Notes under the pieces: generated by a model
The model's input: the letters and a program-made list of their open reading frames with translations, nothing else
The model's database searches: none
Told to the model about the DNA's origin: nothing
In this document: piece after piece, positions 3,120 to 7,149 of the stretch
Numbering within the stretch: the stretch's first letter is position 1
How the letters are laid out: every line of letters starts with the position of its first letter
From: a virus
Lineage: Duplodnaviria > Heunggongvirae > Uroviricota > Caudoviricetes
IMG/VR virus record: IMGVR_UViG_2585427792_000017
Strand: one strand, 5' to 3'
Length of the DNA: 7,149 nucleotides
Made by a program: the position numbers and the translations under genes

Positions 3120-3239
3120 GTATCGTTATTCACCAGTGAAAAAACGTTCAATCTTTTTTACTGAATGAATAATTCGCATAATTCCAATGGCGCAGGCCAC
3201 CGAAATAATCAGAACAAGCCATGAGATAAATATACTCAT
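3120..3239 (-). CDS. Candidate 39-aa single-pass membrane peptide (MSIFISWLVLIISVACAIGIMRIIHSVKKIERFFTGE)
   Basis: Below the track cutoff. ATG 3239..3237 overlaps the TGA 3238..3236 of the upstream 80-aa gene (ATGA). About 20 hydrophobic residues followed by a basic tail. Translated by hand from the reverse complement. Confidence 0.35.
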
Positions 3240-3489: not shown

Positions 3490-3768
3490 TTAATCTGCTT
3501 TCTGAATTTCAGCTTCTGAATCCATACAAATAATTTCGATATAGGGTTCATCGCCATTAACCTGACGTGCCTTTTCAGCTTCGCTAATGATTTCTCGTAC
3601 GGTCTGGTACGGAAGCTCCACAGTCAGGTGCGTACCGTTCAGATAAACGTAAGTAGCTGCGTTTTTTTCGGATGGAACAACTCCGTCAATGGCTGATGCG
3701 CGTAATAACAGTTCACCGCGAAAATCAATAAAACGGATAAATACACCTTGTGCATGGTCTTTGGTCAT
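3490..3768 (-). CDS. Hypothetical early-operon protein, 92 aa (track ORF trimmed to the internal ATG)
   Basis: The track ORF 3490..3882 overlaps the upstream gene. The in-frame ATG 3768..3766 has AGGTG upstream and sits 10 nt after the TAA (3781..3779) of the 113-aa gene. Confidence 0.6.
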   Translation of the reverse strand: MTKDHAQGVFIRFIDFRGELLLRASAIDGVVPSEKNAATYVYLNGTHLTVELPYQTVREIISEAEKARQVNGDEPYIEIICMDSEAEIQKAD

Positions 3769-3778
3769 AAAGCACCTG

Positions 3779-4120
3779 TTATAAATCAGCCTGTTTAATA
3801 AAACTTTGCCCGCGAAGCAGACGATCAACCGTGCGAAGTGCTTCGTATAATGTGAAATCCTGCCCGAACTGATTGTCACCACAGCTCAATGCAAAAATGC
3901 GGTTTCCGGTAAACGGATTGCGTGGGCATTTGTGGATCACGATTCCAGCTTTCTCAATCAGCCAGGCGTGCTCGCCGATTTGTTTTACTGGGTAGCCATC
4001 CGGCGTTGCGTGTGTATCACTCAGGCTGTAGCGGATGTTACTGCGTGATGCACTGGTAGCGAAACGGTTAGCGTGGCGTTCAGCACCATTACGAAAGCGT
4101 GAATTACGTTGCTGTTTCAT
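3779..4120 (-). CDS. Hypothetical early-operon protein, 113 aa, basic N-terminus
   Basis: ORF in track. ATG 4120..4118, 29 nt after the stop of the 69-aa gene. Confidence 0.6.
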   Translation of the reverse strand: MKQQRNSRFRNGAERHANRFATSASRSNIRYSLSDTHATPDGYPVKQIGEHAWLIEKAGIVIHKCPRNPFTGNRIFALSCGDNQFGQDFTLYEALRTVDRLLRGQSFIKQADL

Positions 4121-4149
4121 ATTCCGACTTGCCTCAATGTGTTGAAGAT

Positions 4150-4359
4150 CTACAGTCTGATGTTTCTTGTAAGTTTAAAAATTACTTCGGCCATAACTTC
4201 ACTAATTACTCCAGTATCCCGGTTGGTCAGTGCCACTTCCCATGCGGCTTTTGCTCGTGTAGGGTCTAGCCGACCTGATTTTTGTTGTGTAATGATGGAA
4301 CGTAAATCGTCATATAGTTCTTTTATGGCTGTTTCTTTTGTCTGTGTGAGGTTATCCAT
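4150..4359 (-). CDS. Hypothetical protein, 69 aa, in the AT-rich island
   Basis: ORF in track. ATG 4359..4357 preceded by AAGGTG with 5-nt spacing. Its start codon overlaps the start codon of the divergent + strand gene by 2 nt. Confidence 0.5.
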   Translation of the reverse strand: MDNLTQTKETAIKELYDDLRSIITQQKSGRLDPTRAKAAWEVALTNRDTGVISEVMAEVIFKLTRNIRL

Positions 4360-4798
4360 GGCAACACCTTCAAATATTGATGTTTTTAATGAAACTGTTG
4401 GTAAAACTTTTGCGTTTCTTTATGAGTCATTTCCCCGAAAAGTAACCATTGATGTTTGTGCTTTAACCGGTGTTTCCGCTCCAACGTTTGAAGAGAAGGA
4501 CCCGGCGGTCAGAAAGCAAAAACATGAAGCTCTTGTTCTTCGTTATTACTCCATTGAGTGGCTTATTGCTGCTGGTTATGTATCTGCTGATGCTGTTCCT
4601 TTTGAAAGTTTCGATAAGGCGGTACTTACGGCTAAAGGACTTGAATTATTGAAACTTGATCCAGAGTCACTTAAGCAATCGCTTGGAGATAAACTTGTCG
4701 ATGCAACCAAGAGTGGGGCGATAGATGCAATAAAAAGCACCGCCTCATCTGCACTTACTACAGGTATCTCCTTTGCTTTTAAACACTTGTTTGGCTAA
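4358..4798 (+). CDS. Hypothetical protein, 146 aa, opposite-strand cargo gene; function unknown
   Basis: The track ORF starts at TTG 4109. The credible start is ATG 4358 (MATPSNIDVF...) with GAGGT 5 nt upstream; stop TAA 4796-4798. AT-rich relative to flanks. C-terminus ends in a hydrophobic tail (TTGISFAFKHLFG). Confidence 0.6.
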   Translation: MATPSNIDVFNETVGKTFAFLYESFPRKVTIDVCALTGVSAPTFEEKDPAVRKQKHEALVLRYYSIEWLIAAGYVSADAVPFESFDKAVLTAKGLELLKLDPESLKQSLGDKLVDATKSGAIDAIKSTASSALTTGISFAFKHLFG

Positions 4799-4842
4799 TC
4801 GATTGATGCATCCTACATAACGTCCATTTTTGAAGTATCTAC

Positions 4843-4880
4843 GGCGAAACCTCATGTGATGGGGTTCGCTGTTTTGCTGT
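4843..4880 (+). terminator. Putative terminator between convergent genes
   Basis: Imperfect hairpin GCGAAACC / GGTTCGC (7 bp with one bulged A, 11-nt loop) followed by a T-rich tract TGTTTTGCTGT, 45 nt after the stop of the 146-aa gene. Confidence 0.35.
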
Positions 4881-4902
4881 TGCTTATTCATTTTTTGTGT
4901 CT

Positions 4903-5109
4903 CTACCCAATGAGCCAAATAACAAACGCTATGAGCACCGCGCCAATAGTGGTCGGAAAAAGACCTCTTGTATAGGCGGCGAGGTAATGAACGTTGAGAA
5001 CAATAAAGCGCTCTTTTTGTCCTGTTAGCTTGTTAAGCAGATAAATCGCTATTACACCCACTTCCAGGTACACAAAGCTCAAAATGGCGCTGATGATATT
5101 GCTGGTCAT
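4903..5109 (-). CDS. Small membrane protein, 68 aa, two predicted transmembrane helices
   Basis: C-terminal part of track ORF 4903..5358, taken from ATG 5109..5107, 10 nt after the cox TAA: MTSNIISAILSFVYLEVGVIAIYLL...LFPTTIGAVLIAFVIWLIG. No Shine-Dalgarno, only an A-rich leader. The upstream 83 codons of the track ORF overlap cox in another frame and look non-protein-like. Confidence 0.45.
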   Translation of the reverse strand: MTSNIISAILSFVYLEVGVIAIYLLNKLTGQKERFIVLNVHYLAAYTRGLFPTTIGAVLIAFVIWLIG

Positions 5110-5119
5110 TTTTGTGTGT

Positions 5120-5641
5120 TTAGTTGCCTTCGCTGCTTTTGAGTCGTTCCAGCTTTGAGCTTCTACCCATATAAACCCGTTTTCCGTTAACGGTCTGGCA
5201 GTCTTCTTTGTCGGCTGGAGAGAACTTTCTTTTCTGGCGGTCATACGTCCAGTAACTTTTCCAGTTGTGCCATTCTGGGGGCTCGTGCTCTGGTAGCTCA
5301 TCAGCCAACTTGTCCCACTCTTTGGCGTTAAACCACCATACTCCGTCTGAGTTTTCATCTTCCGGGTTTGTGCGCGTCTTGTGTCCCGGCATTTGACCGC
5401 GATGAATGGCTACGCGCAGTGCAGATTTTGTTAGCCCAATATATGCCGCGCCTTTTTCCAGAGAGCAAAGCCCGGCGATCGGACCATCCAGCCGCAAAGT
5501 CGCTCCTTTTTTGTAGGAACGCTTTTTCTTGTTTTCTTCGTGCTCGTCGTCGTTGGCGGCATCAATGGATCCGCTGAGTGCGTCACTTTCCTGAAGTGGT
5601 TGGTGGTCAGATAACTCTTTATCGGCAATGAAGTCCCGCAT
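5120..5641 (-). CDS. cox: Cox-like excisionase/transcriptional regulator, 173 aa, with N- and C-terminal extensions
   Basis: ATG 5641..5639 with GAGG 7 nt upstream. The core (LEKGAAYIGLTKSALRVAIHRGQMPGHK...DGVWWFNAKEW) resembles the HTH and following region of P2 Cox as I recall it. It is the first gene of the operon divergent from C. Confidence 0.65.
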   Translation of the reverse strand: MRDFIADKELSDHQPLQESDALSGSIDAANDDEHEENKKKRSYKKGATLRLDGPIAGLCSLEKGAAYIGLTKSALRVAIHRGQMPGHKTRTNPEDENSDGVWWFNAKEWDKLADELPEHEPPEWHNWKSYWTYDRQKRKFSPADKEDCQTVNGKRVYMGRSSKLERLKSSEGN

Positions 5642-5660
5642 TTGTTATCCTCTTGCGTTG

Positions 5661-5700
5661 GTGCGCTTGTTGCGCCTTGTGATGGTTTGTTTTGGCTTGT
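5661..5700. repeat. Four direct repeats with 10-bp periodicity, each ending in TTGT
   Basis: GTGCGCTTGT / TGCGCCTTGT / GATGGTTTGT / TTTGGCTTGT, at 5661-5670, 5671-5680, 5681-5690, 5691-5700. Helical phasing suggests a protein array on one face of the DNA. Confidence 0.4.
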
Positions 5701-5724
5701 AAAGATAACCAAAAGGTTATCTTT
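5701..5724. promoter_or_regulatory. Candidate repressor operator: perfect 10-bp inverted repeat with 4-bp spacer
   Basis: AAAGATAACC-AAAA-GGTTATCTTT. Further GGTTATCTT copy at 5748-5756 (overlapping the C start codon) and a related TGTTATCCT at 5643-5651 next to the cox start. Confidence 0.45.
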
Positions 5725-5734
5725 GTGCGAGAGG

Positions 5735-5761
5735 TTAATACTCAAATGGTTATCTTGTCAA
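5735..5761 (-). promoter_or_regulatory. Candidate early promoter Pe (- strand)
   Basis: Perfect -35 TTGACA (reverse complement of 5756-5761) and -10-like TATTAA (reverse complement of 5735-5740). The spacer is only 15 bp, so this is tentative. The -35 overlaps one GGTTATCTT half-site and the palindrome lies just downstream. Confidence 0.3.
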
Positions 5762-6087
5762 TAGACTACGCAAAAAAGTTACGTCAGATACGTAAGGCGG
5801 AAGGGTTAACACAAAAGCAGTTTGCGGATATTACTGGGTTGTCTTTGGCAACCATAAGGAATTACGAATCGGGGCAAAAGAACGCTAGAGCAAAAATCGT
5901 TGAGGCGGTTCTGCAAGTCGATCGCTTTGAAAAATACATGCTGTGGCTAATAAAAGATAAGACGCTACCTGTCGCCGGGCAGATTGCTCCGGCTCTCTCT
6001 CTTGATGGATCTATTCAGTCGGAGGGCGATCAGGTTTCAATCGGTATTACCCAAAAATCACCCCGATCAGGCCGCAATGTTGGCTGA
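5746..6087 (+). CDS. C: Immunity repressor C (P2 C family), 113 aa
   Basis: The track ORF starts at TTG 5692. ATG 5746 (MVILSIDYAKKLRQIRKAEGLTQKQFADITGLSLATIRNYESGQ...GQIAPALS) aligns by eye with P2 C (HTH, YESG, GQIAPAL). GAGAGG lies 11 nt upstream. Confidence 0.75.
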   Translation: MVILSIDYAKKLRQIRKAEGLTQKQFADITGLSLATIRNYESGQKNARAKIVEAVLQVDRFEKYMLWLIKDKTLPVAGQIAPALSLDGSIQSEGDQVSIGITQKSPRSGRNVG

Positions 6088-6156
6088 CTCTACACATTGA
6101 GCGAATTACATATCGCAAGGAGTGTTTAGTTAATTTATCCGTTGGAGGGGCTAATC

Positions 6157-7149
6157 ATGTCGATTAAGCAACTCAAAGACGGACGTTATCAGGTCGATGT
6201 CAGACCGCAGGGGGCGGAAGGAAAGCGGATTCGAAAAATCTTTGCCCTGAAATCAAAGGCTCAGGAGTTTGAGAAGTATGTGTTACAGAACTTTCATGAC
6301 AAGCCATGGCAGGCTAAGCCAGCTGATCAGCGGCGATTATCAGAGCTGCTTGATGCGTGGTGGATGCTTGATGGGCGTAATCAGGCTTACGGGGATAGCT
6401 ACAGGGTTAGGCTAGGGAAGGTTGTTCGTGAAATGGGAGATCCTCGCGCCAGTCAGATGACGCGAAAATTTATGCTTGAATATCGGTCAGAGAAATTACA
6501 GGCCGGATTAATGCCGTCCAGTATTAATCGTGACTTATGCGTACTGTCTACCATGTTCACGGTGCTGATTGAAGCTGAGGTCTTTCACAACGCGAACCCT
6601 GTACGCGGTATACGAAAACTGAAAGTTCAGAACACAGAGATGGCCTTTCTTTCTGATGATGAGATTGAACGGCTTCTTGAGCGACTGGAGGGTGATGCGC
6701 GTCGTGTTGCCATTCTGTGTCTTTCTACTGGTGCCCGATGGAGTGAAGCATCGGAACTACGTGGAGAGCATATCGTTGGCAACCGGGTGACGTTCTTTAA
6801 CACCAAAAACGGAAAATCCCGTTCGGTTCCTGTGGCGGATTCGGTCGTGCCTCTGATTAAAACCCGTCGAACGGGGTTATTGTATCAGGTTGATTATCTG
6901 AAGTTCCGGGAGATTCTTCAGGAGGTGAAACCGGATTTGCCGAAGGGGCAGGCTACGCATGTCATGCGTCATACATTTGCCACACACTTTATGATGAATG
7001 GCGGAAATATTGTTACGTTGCAACGAATCCTGGGGCACGCAACGATTCAGCAAACAATGACGTACGCTCATTTTTCGCCGGACTTTTTACTGGACGCGAT
7101 CAACTTTAATCCGCTGGCTGAAAGTGTCCATAAACTGTCCATCGATTAG
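6157..7149 (+). CDS. int: Tyrosine recombinase, P2-type integrase, 330 aa
   Basis: The track ORF starts at TTG 6142. ATG 6157 has GGAGG 8 nt upstream. MSIKQLKDGRYQVDVRPQG..., TGARWSE, HVMRHTFATHF and TMTYAHF match the P2 Int pattern including the catalytic R, H-x-x-R and Y. Stop TAG 7147-7149. Confidence 0.9.
   Translation: MSIKQLKDGRYQVDVRPQGAEGKRIRKIFALKSKAQEFEKYVLQNFHDKPWQAKPADQRRLSELLDAWWMLDGRNQAYGDSYRVRLGKVVREMGDPRASQMTRKFMLEYRSEKLQAGLMPSSINRDLCVLSTMFTVLIEAEVFHNANPVRGIRKLKVQNTEMAFLSDDEIERLLERLEGDARRVAILCLSTGARWSEASELRGEHIVGNRVTFFNTKNGKSRSVPVADSVVPLIKTRRTGLLYQVDYLKFREILQEVKPDLPKGQATHVMRHTFATHFMMNGGNIVTLQRILGHATIQQTMTYAHFSPDFLLDAINFNPLAESVHKLSID

Follow-up and report, generated by a model that had tools for sequence, protein, structure and literature searches.

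A small predicted inner-membrane protein encoded directly after cox in the early operon of P88-like prophages

The smp gene and its protein family

The stretch of DNA analyzed here (the window) has 7149 nucleotides (nt) and comes from the IMG/VR virus record IMGVR_UViG_2585427792_000017 (Caudoviricetes). It covers the lysis-lysogeny switch together with the early operon of a P88-type prophage of the P2 family (genus Xuanwuvirus, Peduoviridae). The gene under study, hereafter smp (small membrane protein), is a minus-strand open reading frame (ORF) of 68 codons, which, as read from the sequence and its translation, starts with an ATG at 5109-5107 and ends with a TAG at 4905-4903 (Table 1). Its 68–amino acid (aa) product is MTSNIISAILSFVYLEVGVIAIYLLNKLTGQKERFIVLNVHYLAAYTRGLFPTTIGAVLIAFVIWLIG. 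The cox gene upstream ends with a TAA at 5122-5120, and exactly 10 nt (ACACACAAAA) separate this codon from the smp ATG. The coordinates, the frame, and Kyte-Doolittle maxima of 2.16 and 2.23 agree with a first-pass annotation of the window, which had described a 68-aa ORF with two hydrophobic segments 10 nt after the cox stop. Since the window contains 84 ORFs of at least 30 aa, the length of smp alone is not significant. The GC content is 44.4% in smp, 49.2% in the window, and 40.8% in the stretch between smp and the downstream DUF4761 gene.

As the same annotation had noticed, smp has no Shine-Dalgarno (SD) sequence. The only purine-rich stretch upstream is GAAGG, which ends 17 nt before the ATG, while most other cistrons of the operon are preceded, 5 to 9 nt upstream, by recognizable SD sequences such as AGAGGA, AAGGGG, CAGGAG, and GAAGGAAG. 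The spacer is 6 nt long in relatives whose Cox is of the short type, and there an in-frame TAA immediately precedes the smp ATG. RNA folded across the cox-smp junction was no more structured than shuffled sequences (z = +0.76), which gives no sign of a structured regulatory element there. The smp frame is open for a further 83 codons upstream (4903-5358, minus strand), overlapping cox in another frame. The start codon is nevertheless fixed by the N terminus MTS(N/H)I, conserved among homologs, and by the in-frame TAA before the ATG in short-Cox (95-aa) contexts.

A search of 5.8 billion proteins yielded 27 homologous clusters from Escherichia, Shigella, Citrobacter, and Salmonella, with 65 to 94% identity to smp and almost all exactly 68 aa long. 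In IMG/VR, 43 smp loci were found. The ORF is intact in 41 of them (40 with 68 codons and one with 72) and truncated in the other 2, and the intact homologs contain zero indels down to 76% nucleotide identity. The ratio of nonsynonymous to synonymous substitution rates (dN/dS, Nei-Gojobori), calculated against the window smp, was 0.15 to 0.46 at dS of up to 0.84; the median over the 152 smp pairs with dS > 0.1 was 0.28. An excess of synonymous changes was evident between the window smp and the copy at locus L036 (Fisher P = 2.8e-5), and variable sites numbered 30, 16, and 39 at codon positions 1, 2, and 3, respectively. PGAP annotates smp in every E. coli genome inspected.

When a profile hidden Markov model was run against 1.84 billion representative proteins, only five sequences matched, all from the same family, and no remote link to a characterized family emerged. 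One of the five, P0030 (71 aa, ~30% identity), founds a Salmonella branch of 39 clusters. At the Salmonella locus L052, the gene of this branch belongs to another P2-like prophage and again follows a Cox-family gene, from which a single 33-aa hydrophobic ORF separates it; a GAGG SD is located 8 nt ahead of its ATG. The first-pass annotation had called for a homolog search behind cox and had named lack of conservation in relatives as an outcome that would speak against the gene. No such lack was seen: smp is retained after cox in 43 viral contigs, as well as in 328 E. coli genomes and the distant Salmonella branch. Its conservation and dN/dS make smp more than a chance ORF, and, judged by these comparisons, it is a genuine, constrained protein-coding gene.

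Two other accounts of the ORF were weighed. According to one, smp is not a gene at all but a chance ORF, conserved through a cis-acting site or through recently shared prophage DNA. The lack of an SD and the abundance of ORFs in the window, where length means little, would fit this account. However, it is already contradicted by the substitution pattern and is extremely improbable: dN/dS is ~0.2 to 0.3 at dS of up to 0.84, there are no indels over 24% nucleotide divergence, variation falls mostly at third codon positions, and the ~30%-identical Salmonella protein retains both synteny and an SD. According to the other, the true product is a 151-aa protein translated from an ATG at 5358. The interval 4903..5358 is indeed listed as a single ORF, and one metagenome gene call, P0028 (125 aa), has such an extension. 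However, the extension exists only where a long cox lies upstream; short-cox relatives have an in-frame TAA at the ATG, a stop codon in the same frame occurs 15 nt ahead of the start in the Salmonella branch, and all homologs align from Met1. A longer product is thus very unlikely, and the 151-aa frame, contradicted by the in-frame stops and the Met1 alignment, was discarded.

The smp product matches phrog_14475, a family of unknown function, over its entire length (residues 1 to 68 on profile positions 1 to 68 of 68; E = 9.4e-29). The same family was matched by 18 of 18 members of both branches tested (best E = 1.3e-38). Its entries WP_000203251.1, WP_000203252.1, WP_097445548.1, P88_4B11 gp41 (YP_009877430.1), and Shae_045 of Citrobacter phage Shae_phiSM are 65 to 97% identical to smp and, like it, are 68 aa long and encoded directly after cox in P88-like prophages. 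The window allele differs from its nearest counterparts by 2 to 3 residues (96 to 97% identity). The earlier view of smp as a singular, noncanonical gene must therefore be given up: smp recurs in P88-like prophages and is already present in RefSeq and phrog_14475. It is an uncharacterized early phage membrane protein, recorded in RefSeq and PHROGs as function unknown, and not a new kind of system. As far as these sequence searches reach, the family is very narrow and comprises only prophages of Escherichia, Shigella, Citrobacter, and Salmonella.

Other collections were also searched. At E ≤ 0.1, smp was matched by no Pfam family and by no defense model of PADLOC-DB; NCBIfam gave no match. When 18 family members were compared to Pfam at E ≤ 10, scattered and unrelated membrane families (Cation_efflux, DUF5540, and others) appeared with 1 to 3 members each and were judged to be noise. 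A sequence-profile search of the PDB returned only adenovirus fiber at E ≥ 0.059, which was considered spurious. A Foldseek search with the AlphaFold2 model gave 0 matches in the PDB and a best E value of 3.3 in BFVD.

Predicted topology and conserved residues

The two Kyte-Doolittle maxima, calculated with a 19-residue window, correspond to residues 5 to 23 and 49 to 68. Simple sums on a Hessa-type scale were +0.23 for residues 5 to 25, −0.04 for residues 49 to 67, and +8.7 for the middle segment. The near-zero sums at both ends and the high value in the middle suggest two membrane-spanning helices and one nonspanning helix. AlphaFold2, supplied with the family alignment, produced helices at residues 2 to 29, 32 to 47, and 53 to 67 (mean predicted local distance difference test score of 72.5), of which the loop helix (32 to 47) is short and moderately hydrophobic. 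The smp loop contains four Lys/Arg residues and neither terminus contains any; the loop of the Salmonella branch contains seven to eight. Since all Lys/Arg residues are in the loop, the positive-inside rule puts the loop on the cytoplasmic side and the two termini at the periplasmic face. The protein is thus predicted to be an inner-membrane helical hairpin of N-out/C-out topology, with ~3 N-terminal residues and zero C-terminal residues exposed to the periplasm.

Residues that are invariant or nearly so in both branches are Gly18 and Ile22 (both invariant) and Tyr23 (≥90%) in helix 1; Lys27, Phe35, Tyr42, Ala44, Ala45, Gly49, and Pro52 in the loop and just after it; and Trp65 in helix 2. The most conserved motif of the family runs from F35 and Y42-x-A44-A45 in the loop on to G49 and P52 at the start of transmembrane (TM) helix 2. 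An acidic residue in the middle of TM helix 1, Glu16 (codon 16, window 5062-5064), is invariant in the E. coli branch, and an additional one, Glu21 (codon 21, window 5047-5049), is present in 4 of 19 protein variants. In the Salmonella branch, Tyr or Ser replaces them, and there is no acidic residue at these positions. The acidic residues might reflect a polar interaction with a partner helix, or they might line a pore.

The early operon and the slot behind cox

Assignment of the upstream ORF to the Cox family is based on PF10743 (31.3 bits compared to a gathering score of 27.5, E = 1.8e-7) and phrog_23196 (E = 2.6e-113); RefSeq names its homologs “Cox family DNA-binding protein.” The length and start of the divergent repressor were taken from 342-nt RefSeq homologs. 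On the minus strand, the gene order is cox, smp, a 48-codon ORF, an inserted island, the DUF4761 gene, a gene for a phrog_3800 protein, DUF4754, and a 37-aa one-helix peptide. Beyond it are several small ORFs and a MarR-like gene, after which the replication endonuclease region begins. Many E. coli chromosomes, as well as phages P88_4B11 and Shae_phiSM, contain annotated regions closely related to this one.

Table 1. Coordinates of smp, of the segments of its product, and of other features of the window.
Feature	Coordinates	Strand	Basis or remark
smp coding sequence, small membrane protein	4903..5109	-	ORF and translation, phrog_14475, 27 homologous protein clusters, dN/dS
TM helix 1 (predicted), codons 4-26	5032..5100	-	Kyte-Doolittle maximum 2.16, AlphaFold2 helix 2-29, conservation
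Loop, codons 27-48, predicted cytoplasmic, 4 Lys/Arg	4966..5031	-	Lys/Arg count, AlphaFold2 helix 32-47, invariant columns
TM helix 2 (predicted), codons 49-68, to C terminus without hydrophilic tail	4906..4965	-	Kyte-Doolittle maximum 2.23, AlphaFold2 helix 53-67
A-rich spacer, cox stop to smp ATG	5110..5119	-	10 nt, without SD; probable coupled or reinitiating translation site
Long-form cox, 173 aa, first early-operon gene	5120..5641	-	Pfam Phage_Cox, phrog_23196
Switch region, candidate operators and early-promoter -35	5703..5761	.	Octamer count, P2-like layout
C-type helix-turn-helix (HTH) immunity repressor, 113 aa from ATG 5746, divergent from cox	5746..6087	+	Pfam HTH_3, E = 3.8e-11
Tyrosine integrase	6142-7149	+	
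orf48, 48 codons, next cistron	4745..4891	-	11 nt past smp stop; SD-less ACACAAAAA leader, as in smp
Inserted island, ~716 bp, ~41% GC; close relatives lack it	4100..4815	.	blastn breakpoints against L001, L002
orf146, 146 aa, phrog_2266	4358-4798	+	Island; hypothetical in Enterobacterales
orf69, 69 aa	4150-4359	-	Island; no family match
37-aa one-helix hydrophobic peptide, MSIFISWLVLIISVACAIGIMRIIHSVKKIERFFTGE	3126-3239	-	Overlaps DUF4754 end by 4 nt

Three copies of the octamer AGATAACC are present in the window, where 0.17 would be expected: at 5703-5710 (plus strand), 5715-5722 (minus strand), and 5748-5755 (minus strand). All three copies are counted within the 104-nt intergenic region between C and cox, and two of them form the palindrome AGATAACCttttGGTTATCT. 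On the minus strand, a TTGACA at 5761-5756 overlaps the first repressor codons, as does the −35 element of the Pe promoter in P2. The layout is analogous to the annotated Pe/O1/O2 region of that phage. We infer that the octamers are candidate repressor operators and that TTGACA is the candidate −35 element of an early promoter for cox and smp. No separate smp promoter was found, nor is there space for one between the C-cox region and smp: the sole promoter-like match in 3700-6200 straddles the smp ATG and cannot serve the gene. With no promoter of its own and a place in a repressed early operon, smp is probably expressed only upon infection or induction and silent in the lysogen.

According to this scheme, smp would be the second cistron of a repressor-controlled early operon headed by cox and would be transcribed only from the repressible early promoter. 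Its translation would depend either on ribosomes that terminate at cox 6 to 10 nt upstream or on initiation at the unstructured A-rich leader. The level of the product would probably be modest and linked to that of Cox.

To describe the distribution of smp, the DUF4761 gene was used as a marker of this early-operon type. It is present in 1419 of 5426 complete E. coli genomes (1591 places). DNA of smp was detected in 328 of the 5426, always chromosomal and always annotated as “hypothetical protein”; about one in five related prophages carries it. In E. coli prophages at loci L001 to L003 and L053, as well as in P88_4B11 and Shae_phiSM, smp directly follows cox, and at the Salmonella locus L052, one small ORF intervenes. 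A scan of one genome per species with the family alignment gave 71 pattern matches, none of which was confirmed by tblastn.

In the sampled prophages, the slot between cox and DUF4761 exists in three states: it contains smp, an unrelated 140-aa gene with an opposed 63-aa gene, or nothing. The smp state is found after long and short Cox alike. At L004 (2376-2996) and L054 (1813-2433), the same long Cox is present without smp, and the slot is occupied by the 140- and 63-aa genes, neither of which matches Pfam, PHROG, or PADLOC. The empty slot occurs in prophages with an Apl-like 67-aa protein. Since the slot holds smp, other genes, or nothing, smp is dispensable and moves between immunity types; in P88-like (Xuanwuvirus) prophages, it recurs as an accessory gene. 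Around the Salmonella homolog, neighboring genes gave no Pfam, PHROG, or PADLOC function hinting at a common role. Known hotspots of the P2 family are located at gpA-gpQ, Z/fun, and tail-CI (PMC9122126; bioRxiv 10.1101/2024.10.15.618418), and the cox-proximal slot is distinct from these three.

Over its first ~27 residues (MNKQQQNS…RRRYFKNGRYVG), orf48, the cistron after smp, matches both P88_4B11 gp43 and the extension found at the N terminus of long DUF4761 proteins (Shae_044, L001). From this match, orf48 is best described as a truncated fusion whose 3′ part has been replaced by island sequence. Its origin as a duplicated DUF4761 5′ end was considered and rejected, as the same sequence is intact as an N-terminal extension or a small upstream ORF in Shae_044, L001, and P88_4B11 gp43. 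The island replaces 62 nt of L001 and L002 and is located inside the N-terminal extension of the DUF4761 frame. Its two genes, orf146 (one distant homolog of which is named DUF2513) and orf69, have start codons that overlap back to back. The same island follows smp in E. coli FDAARGOS_943 and is possibly a moron with expression in the lysogen. The first-pass annotation had placed smp at the edge of an AT-rich island. GC content does fall to 40.8% beyond smp, but the effect is modest, and the island is a separate downstream insertion that ends 87 nt past the smp stop.

Other small hydrophobic peptides are encoded in these operons. Nearly every P88-like early operon inspected has an annotated gene for the 37-aa peptide (WP_000021656 and variants), which gave no family match and is a second conserved small membrane protein of the operon. 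In the commonest E. coli clade, P88_4B11 gp42 (L005 3247-3354), a 35-aa hydrophobic peptide, is encoded just after smp, and the 33-aa hydrophobic peptide of the Salmonella prophage (L052 5877-5978) is encoded between cox and smp. Small membrane peptides seem to accumulate at the site next to cox.

Further downstream in smp-containing operons, a gene for an SPFH (stomatin/HflK-like) protein is present at L001 135-965 and L002 177-1007 (E. coli ETEC4090 and C11). A link between this gene and smp was rejected: L001 and L002 have both, while the window, L003, and L053 have smp but no SPFH gene.

Candidate roles of the smp product

In P2, the position after cox is occupied by a gene for a soluble protein, as the first-pass annotation had stated. 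Orf78, like smp, is the product of a small, nonessential ORF of the early operon ~10 nt after cox; unlike smp, it is basic and soluble (56 aa, maximum Kyte-Doolittle value of 0.17) and has no BLASTP match to smp at E ≤ 100. By sequence, Orf78 is a positional analog of smp and not a homolog. The fil gene of phage 186 occupies a comparable early-operon place in a P2-family phage, but the sole BLASTP match of smp at E ≤ 100 covered 13 residues of Dhr (E = 1.1), with none to Fil. None of Fil, Dhr, and Orf78 is a two-helix membrane protein.

Closer functional models are found further afield. T4 Imm is a small inner-membrane protein that is early, nonessential, and has two hydrophobic segments; it blocks the entry of superinfecting DNA. 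The smp product shares with it small size, two hydrophobic segments, predicted early lytic expression, and dispensability. It differs in that smp belongs to a temperate P2-family phage and that Imm_superinfect was not among the Pfam matches of 18 family members at E ≤ 10. In a Staphylococcus phage, the small membrane protein PhiNM1 Gp11 is made early and stops division by way of MurG and DivIC (PMC11237401). Like smp, it is encoded in the early operon of a temperate phage and is nonessential, although the host is different.

In the proposed hairpin, the termini would be located at the periplasmic face with nearly nothing exposed, and the 22-residue Lys/Arg-bearing loop helix, which carries the most conserved residues, would be in the cytoplasm. 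The protein would then act within the membrane or at its cytoplasmic face, via the conserved loop. Since smp is dispensable, early, and membrane-buried, its product would most likely use the helices and loop to bind a component of the host inner membrane. A possible effect is a block of DNA entry of a second phage during lytic growth, as with T4 Imm; alternatively, an envelope or division function of the host may be arrested, as with PhiNM1 Gp11 and the Kil/Fil class. Overall, with confidence that is evenly balanced, we read smp as an accessory early-operon gene that would encode an inner-membrane hairpin effector of exclusion or host takeover. Among particular roles, Imm-like exclusion, suggested by analogy, is tentatively placed first, and host takeover or division block, likewise argued from analogy, is a possibility placed a little lower. 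Membrane permeabilization by a depolarizing toxin, counter-defense, and any other role are each unlikely. Superinfection exclusion and membrane depolarization are the two functions that the first-pass annotation had suggested as possible.

The unlikely toxin role would make smp a small depolarizing protein (viroporin, GhoT, or holin-like) that oligomerizes and dissipates the proton-motive force, for instance, to shut down the host or set early timing. Small size and two hydrophobic helices suit such a protein, Glu16, joined by a second acidic residue in 4 of 19 variants, might form the polar lining of a pore, the missing SD fits a product kept low, and other tiny hydrophobic peptides are encoded beside smp in relatives. 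Glu16 is, however, not conserved in the Salmonella branch, and no holin, Hok/Gef, GhoT, or other toxin profile was matched even at E ≤ 10. The resemblance to class II holins and pinholins (phage 21 S68 has 68 aa and two TM helices) is limited to size and helix number. Those proteins are N-in/C-in with a charged C-terminal tail, while smp ends at TM helix 2 (…VIWLIG) and is predicted to be N-out/C-out. Their genes belong to a lysis cassette beside the endolysin, while smp is located in the early operon between cox and orf48/DUF4761. A holin role was rejected on account of the opposite topology, the lack of a charged tail, the early-operon position, and the absence of a holin profile match. Toxins of the Hok/Gef/TisB or GhoT type likewise gave no Pfam or NCBIfam match in smp; neither an antitoxin nor an antisense promoter nor a promoter of its own was found for smp, and no antisense gene accompanies smp in relatives without the island.

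Classical exclusion by lysogenic conversion, in which smp would be expressed constitutively from the prophage like P22 SieA, HK97 gp15, or P2 old/tin/fun, agrees with the accessory nature of the gene and its place in a variable prophage slot. Membrane superinfection exclusion proteins are also often small. This possibility is disfavored by the lack of an own promoter and the repressed early operon: smp lies on the lytic strand, 10 nt behind cox and downstream of the candidate operators. With almost no periplasmic exposure to mask a receptor and no PADLOC match, it is improbable. The P2 conversion genes differ from smp, as they have their own promoters and occupy the hotspots gpA-gpQ, Z/fun, and tail-CI (PMC9122126; bioRxiv 10.1101/2024.10.15.618418). 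Early timing, accessory distribution, and membrane location would also suit a counter-defense or anti–abortive infection factor directed at membrane-located defense (Rex-like or other depolarizing effectors). Variable early phage genes are often anti-defense genes. The argument is, however, purely circumstantial, smp has no similarity to known anti-defense proteins, and we consider this function unlikely as well.

Several observations weigh against the reading of smp as an early inner-membrane effector of exclusion or host takeover. The predicted topology follows from the positive-inside rule only, and the net charge of the loop is 0 in the commonest E. coli clade (four Lys/Arg and four Glu). 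Glu16 in TM helix 1 and, in some variants, Glu21 are not typical of a plain membrane anchor and would instead be suited to a pore-former or an obligate partner. Since it lacks an SD, smp may be expressed at a very low level, and expression in the lysogen through read-through or a weak promoter is possible. No match in Pfam, NCBIfam, PADLOC, PDB, or BFVD gives smp a function, and the literature searched contained nothing on the protein or its function.

A broader and more speculative proposal is that smp, P88_4B11 gp42, and the Salmonella 33-aa ORF could form an unrecognized class of early membrane effectors in a fourth variable slot of the P2 family. The acidic residue of TM helix 1 might allow smp to form a cation pore or to clamp an inner-membrane protein, which would close the cell to competing phages or halt envelope synthesis within minutes of the onset of lytic growth. 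We regard this proposal, as a whole, as rather doubtful.

Small uncharacterized genes abound in the early operons of temperate phages, and a few (Kil, Fil, Imm, and PhiNM1 Gp11) have proved to be precise inhibitors of essential host machinery or of competing phages. Among such genes, smp is a compact, delimited, and constrained effector candidate carried by about 6% of complete E. coli genomes, for which natural “knock-out” relatives exist, with other genes or an empty slot in its place. Without a phenotype, smp stays one more hypothetical phage protein; if one is defined, the P2 family would gain a membrane effector, and the cox-proximal slot would be marked as a further variable site.

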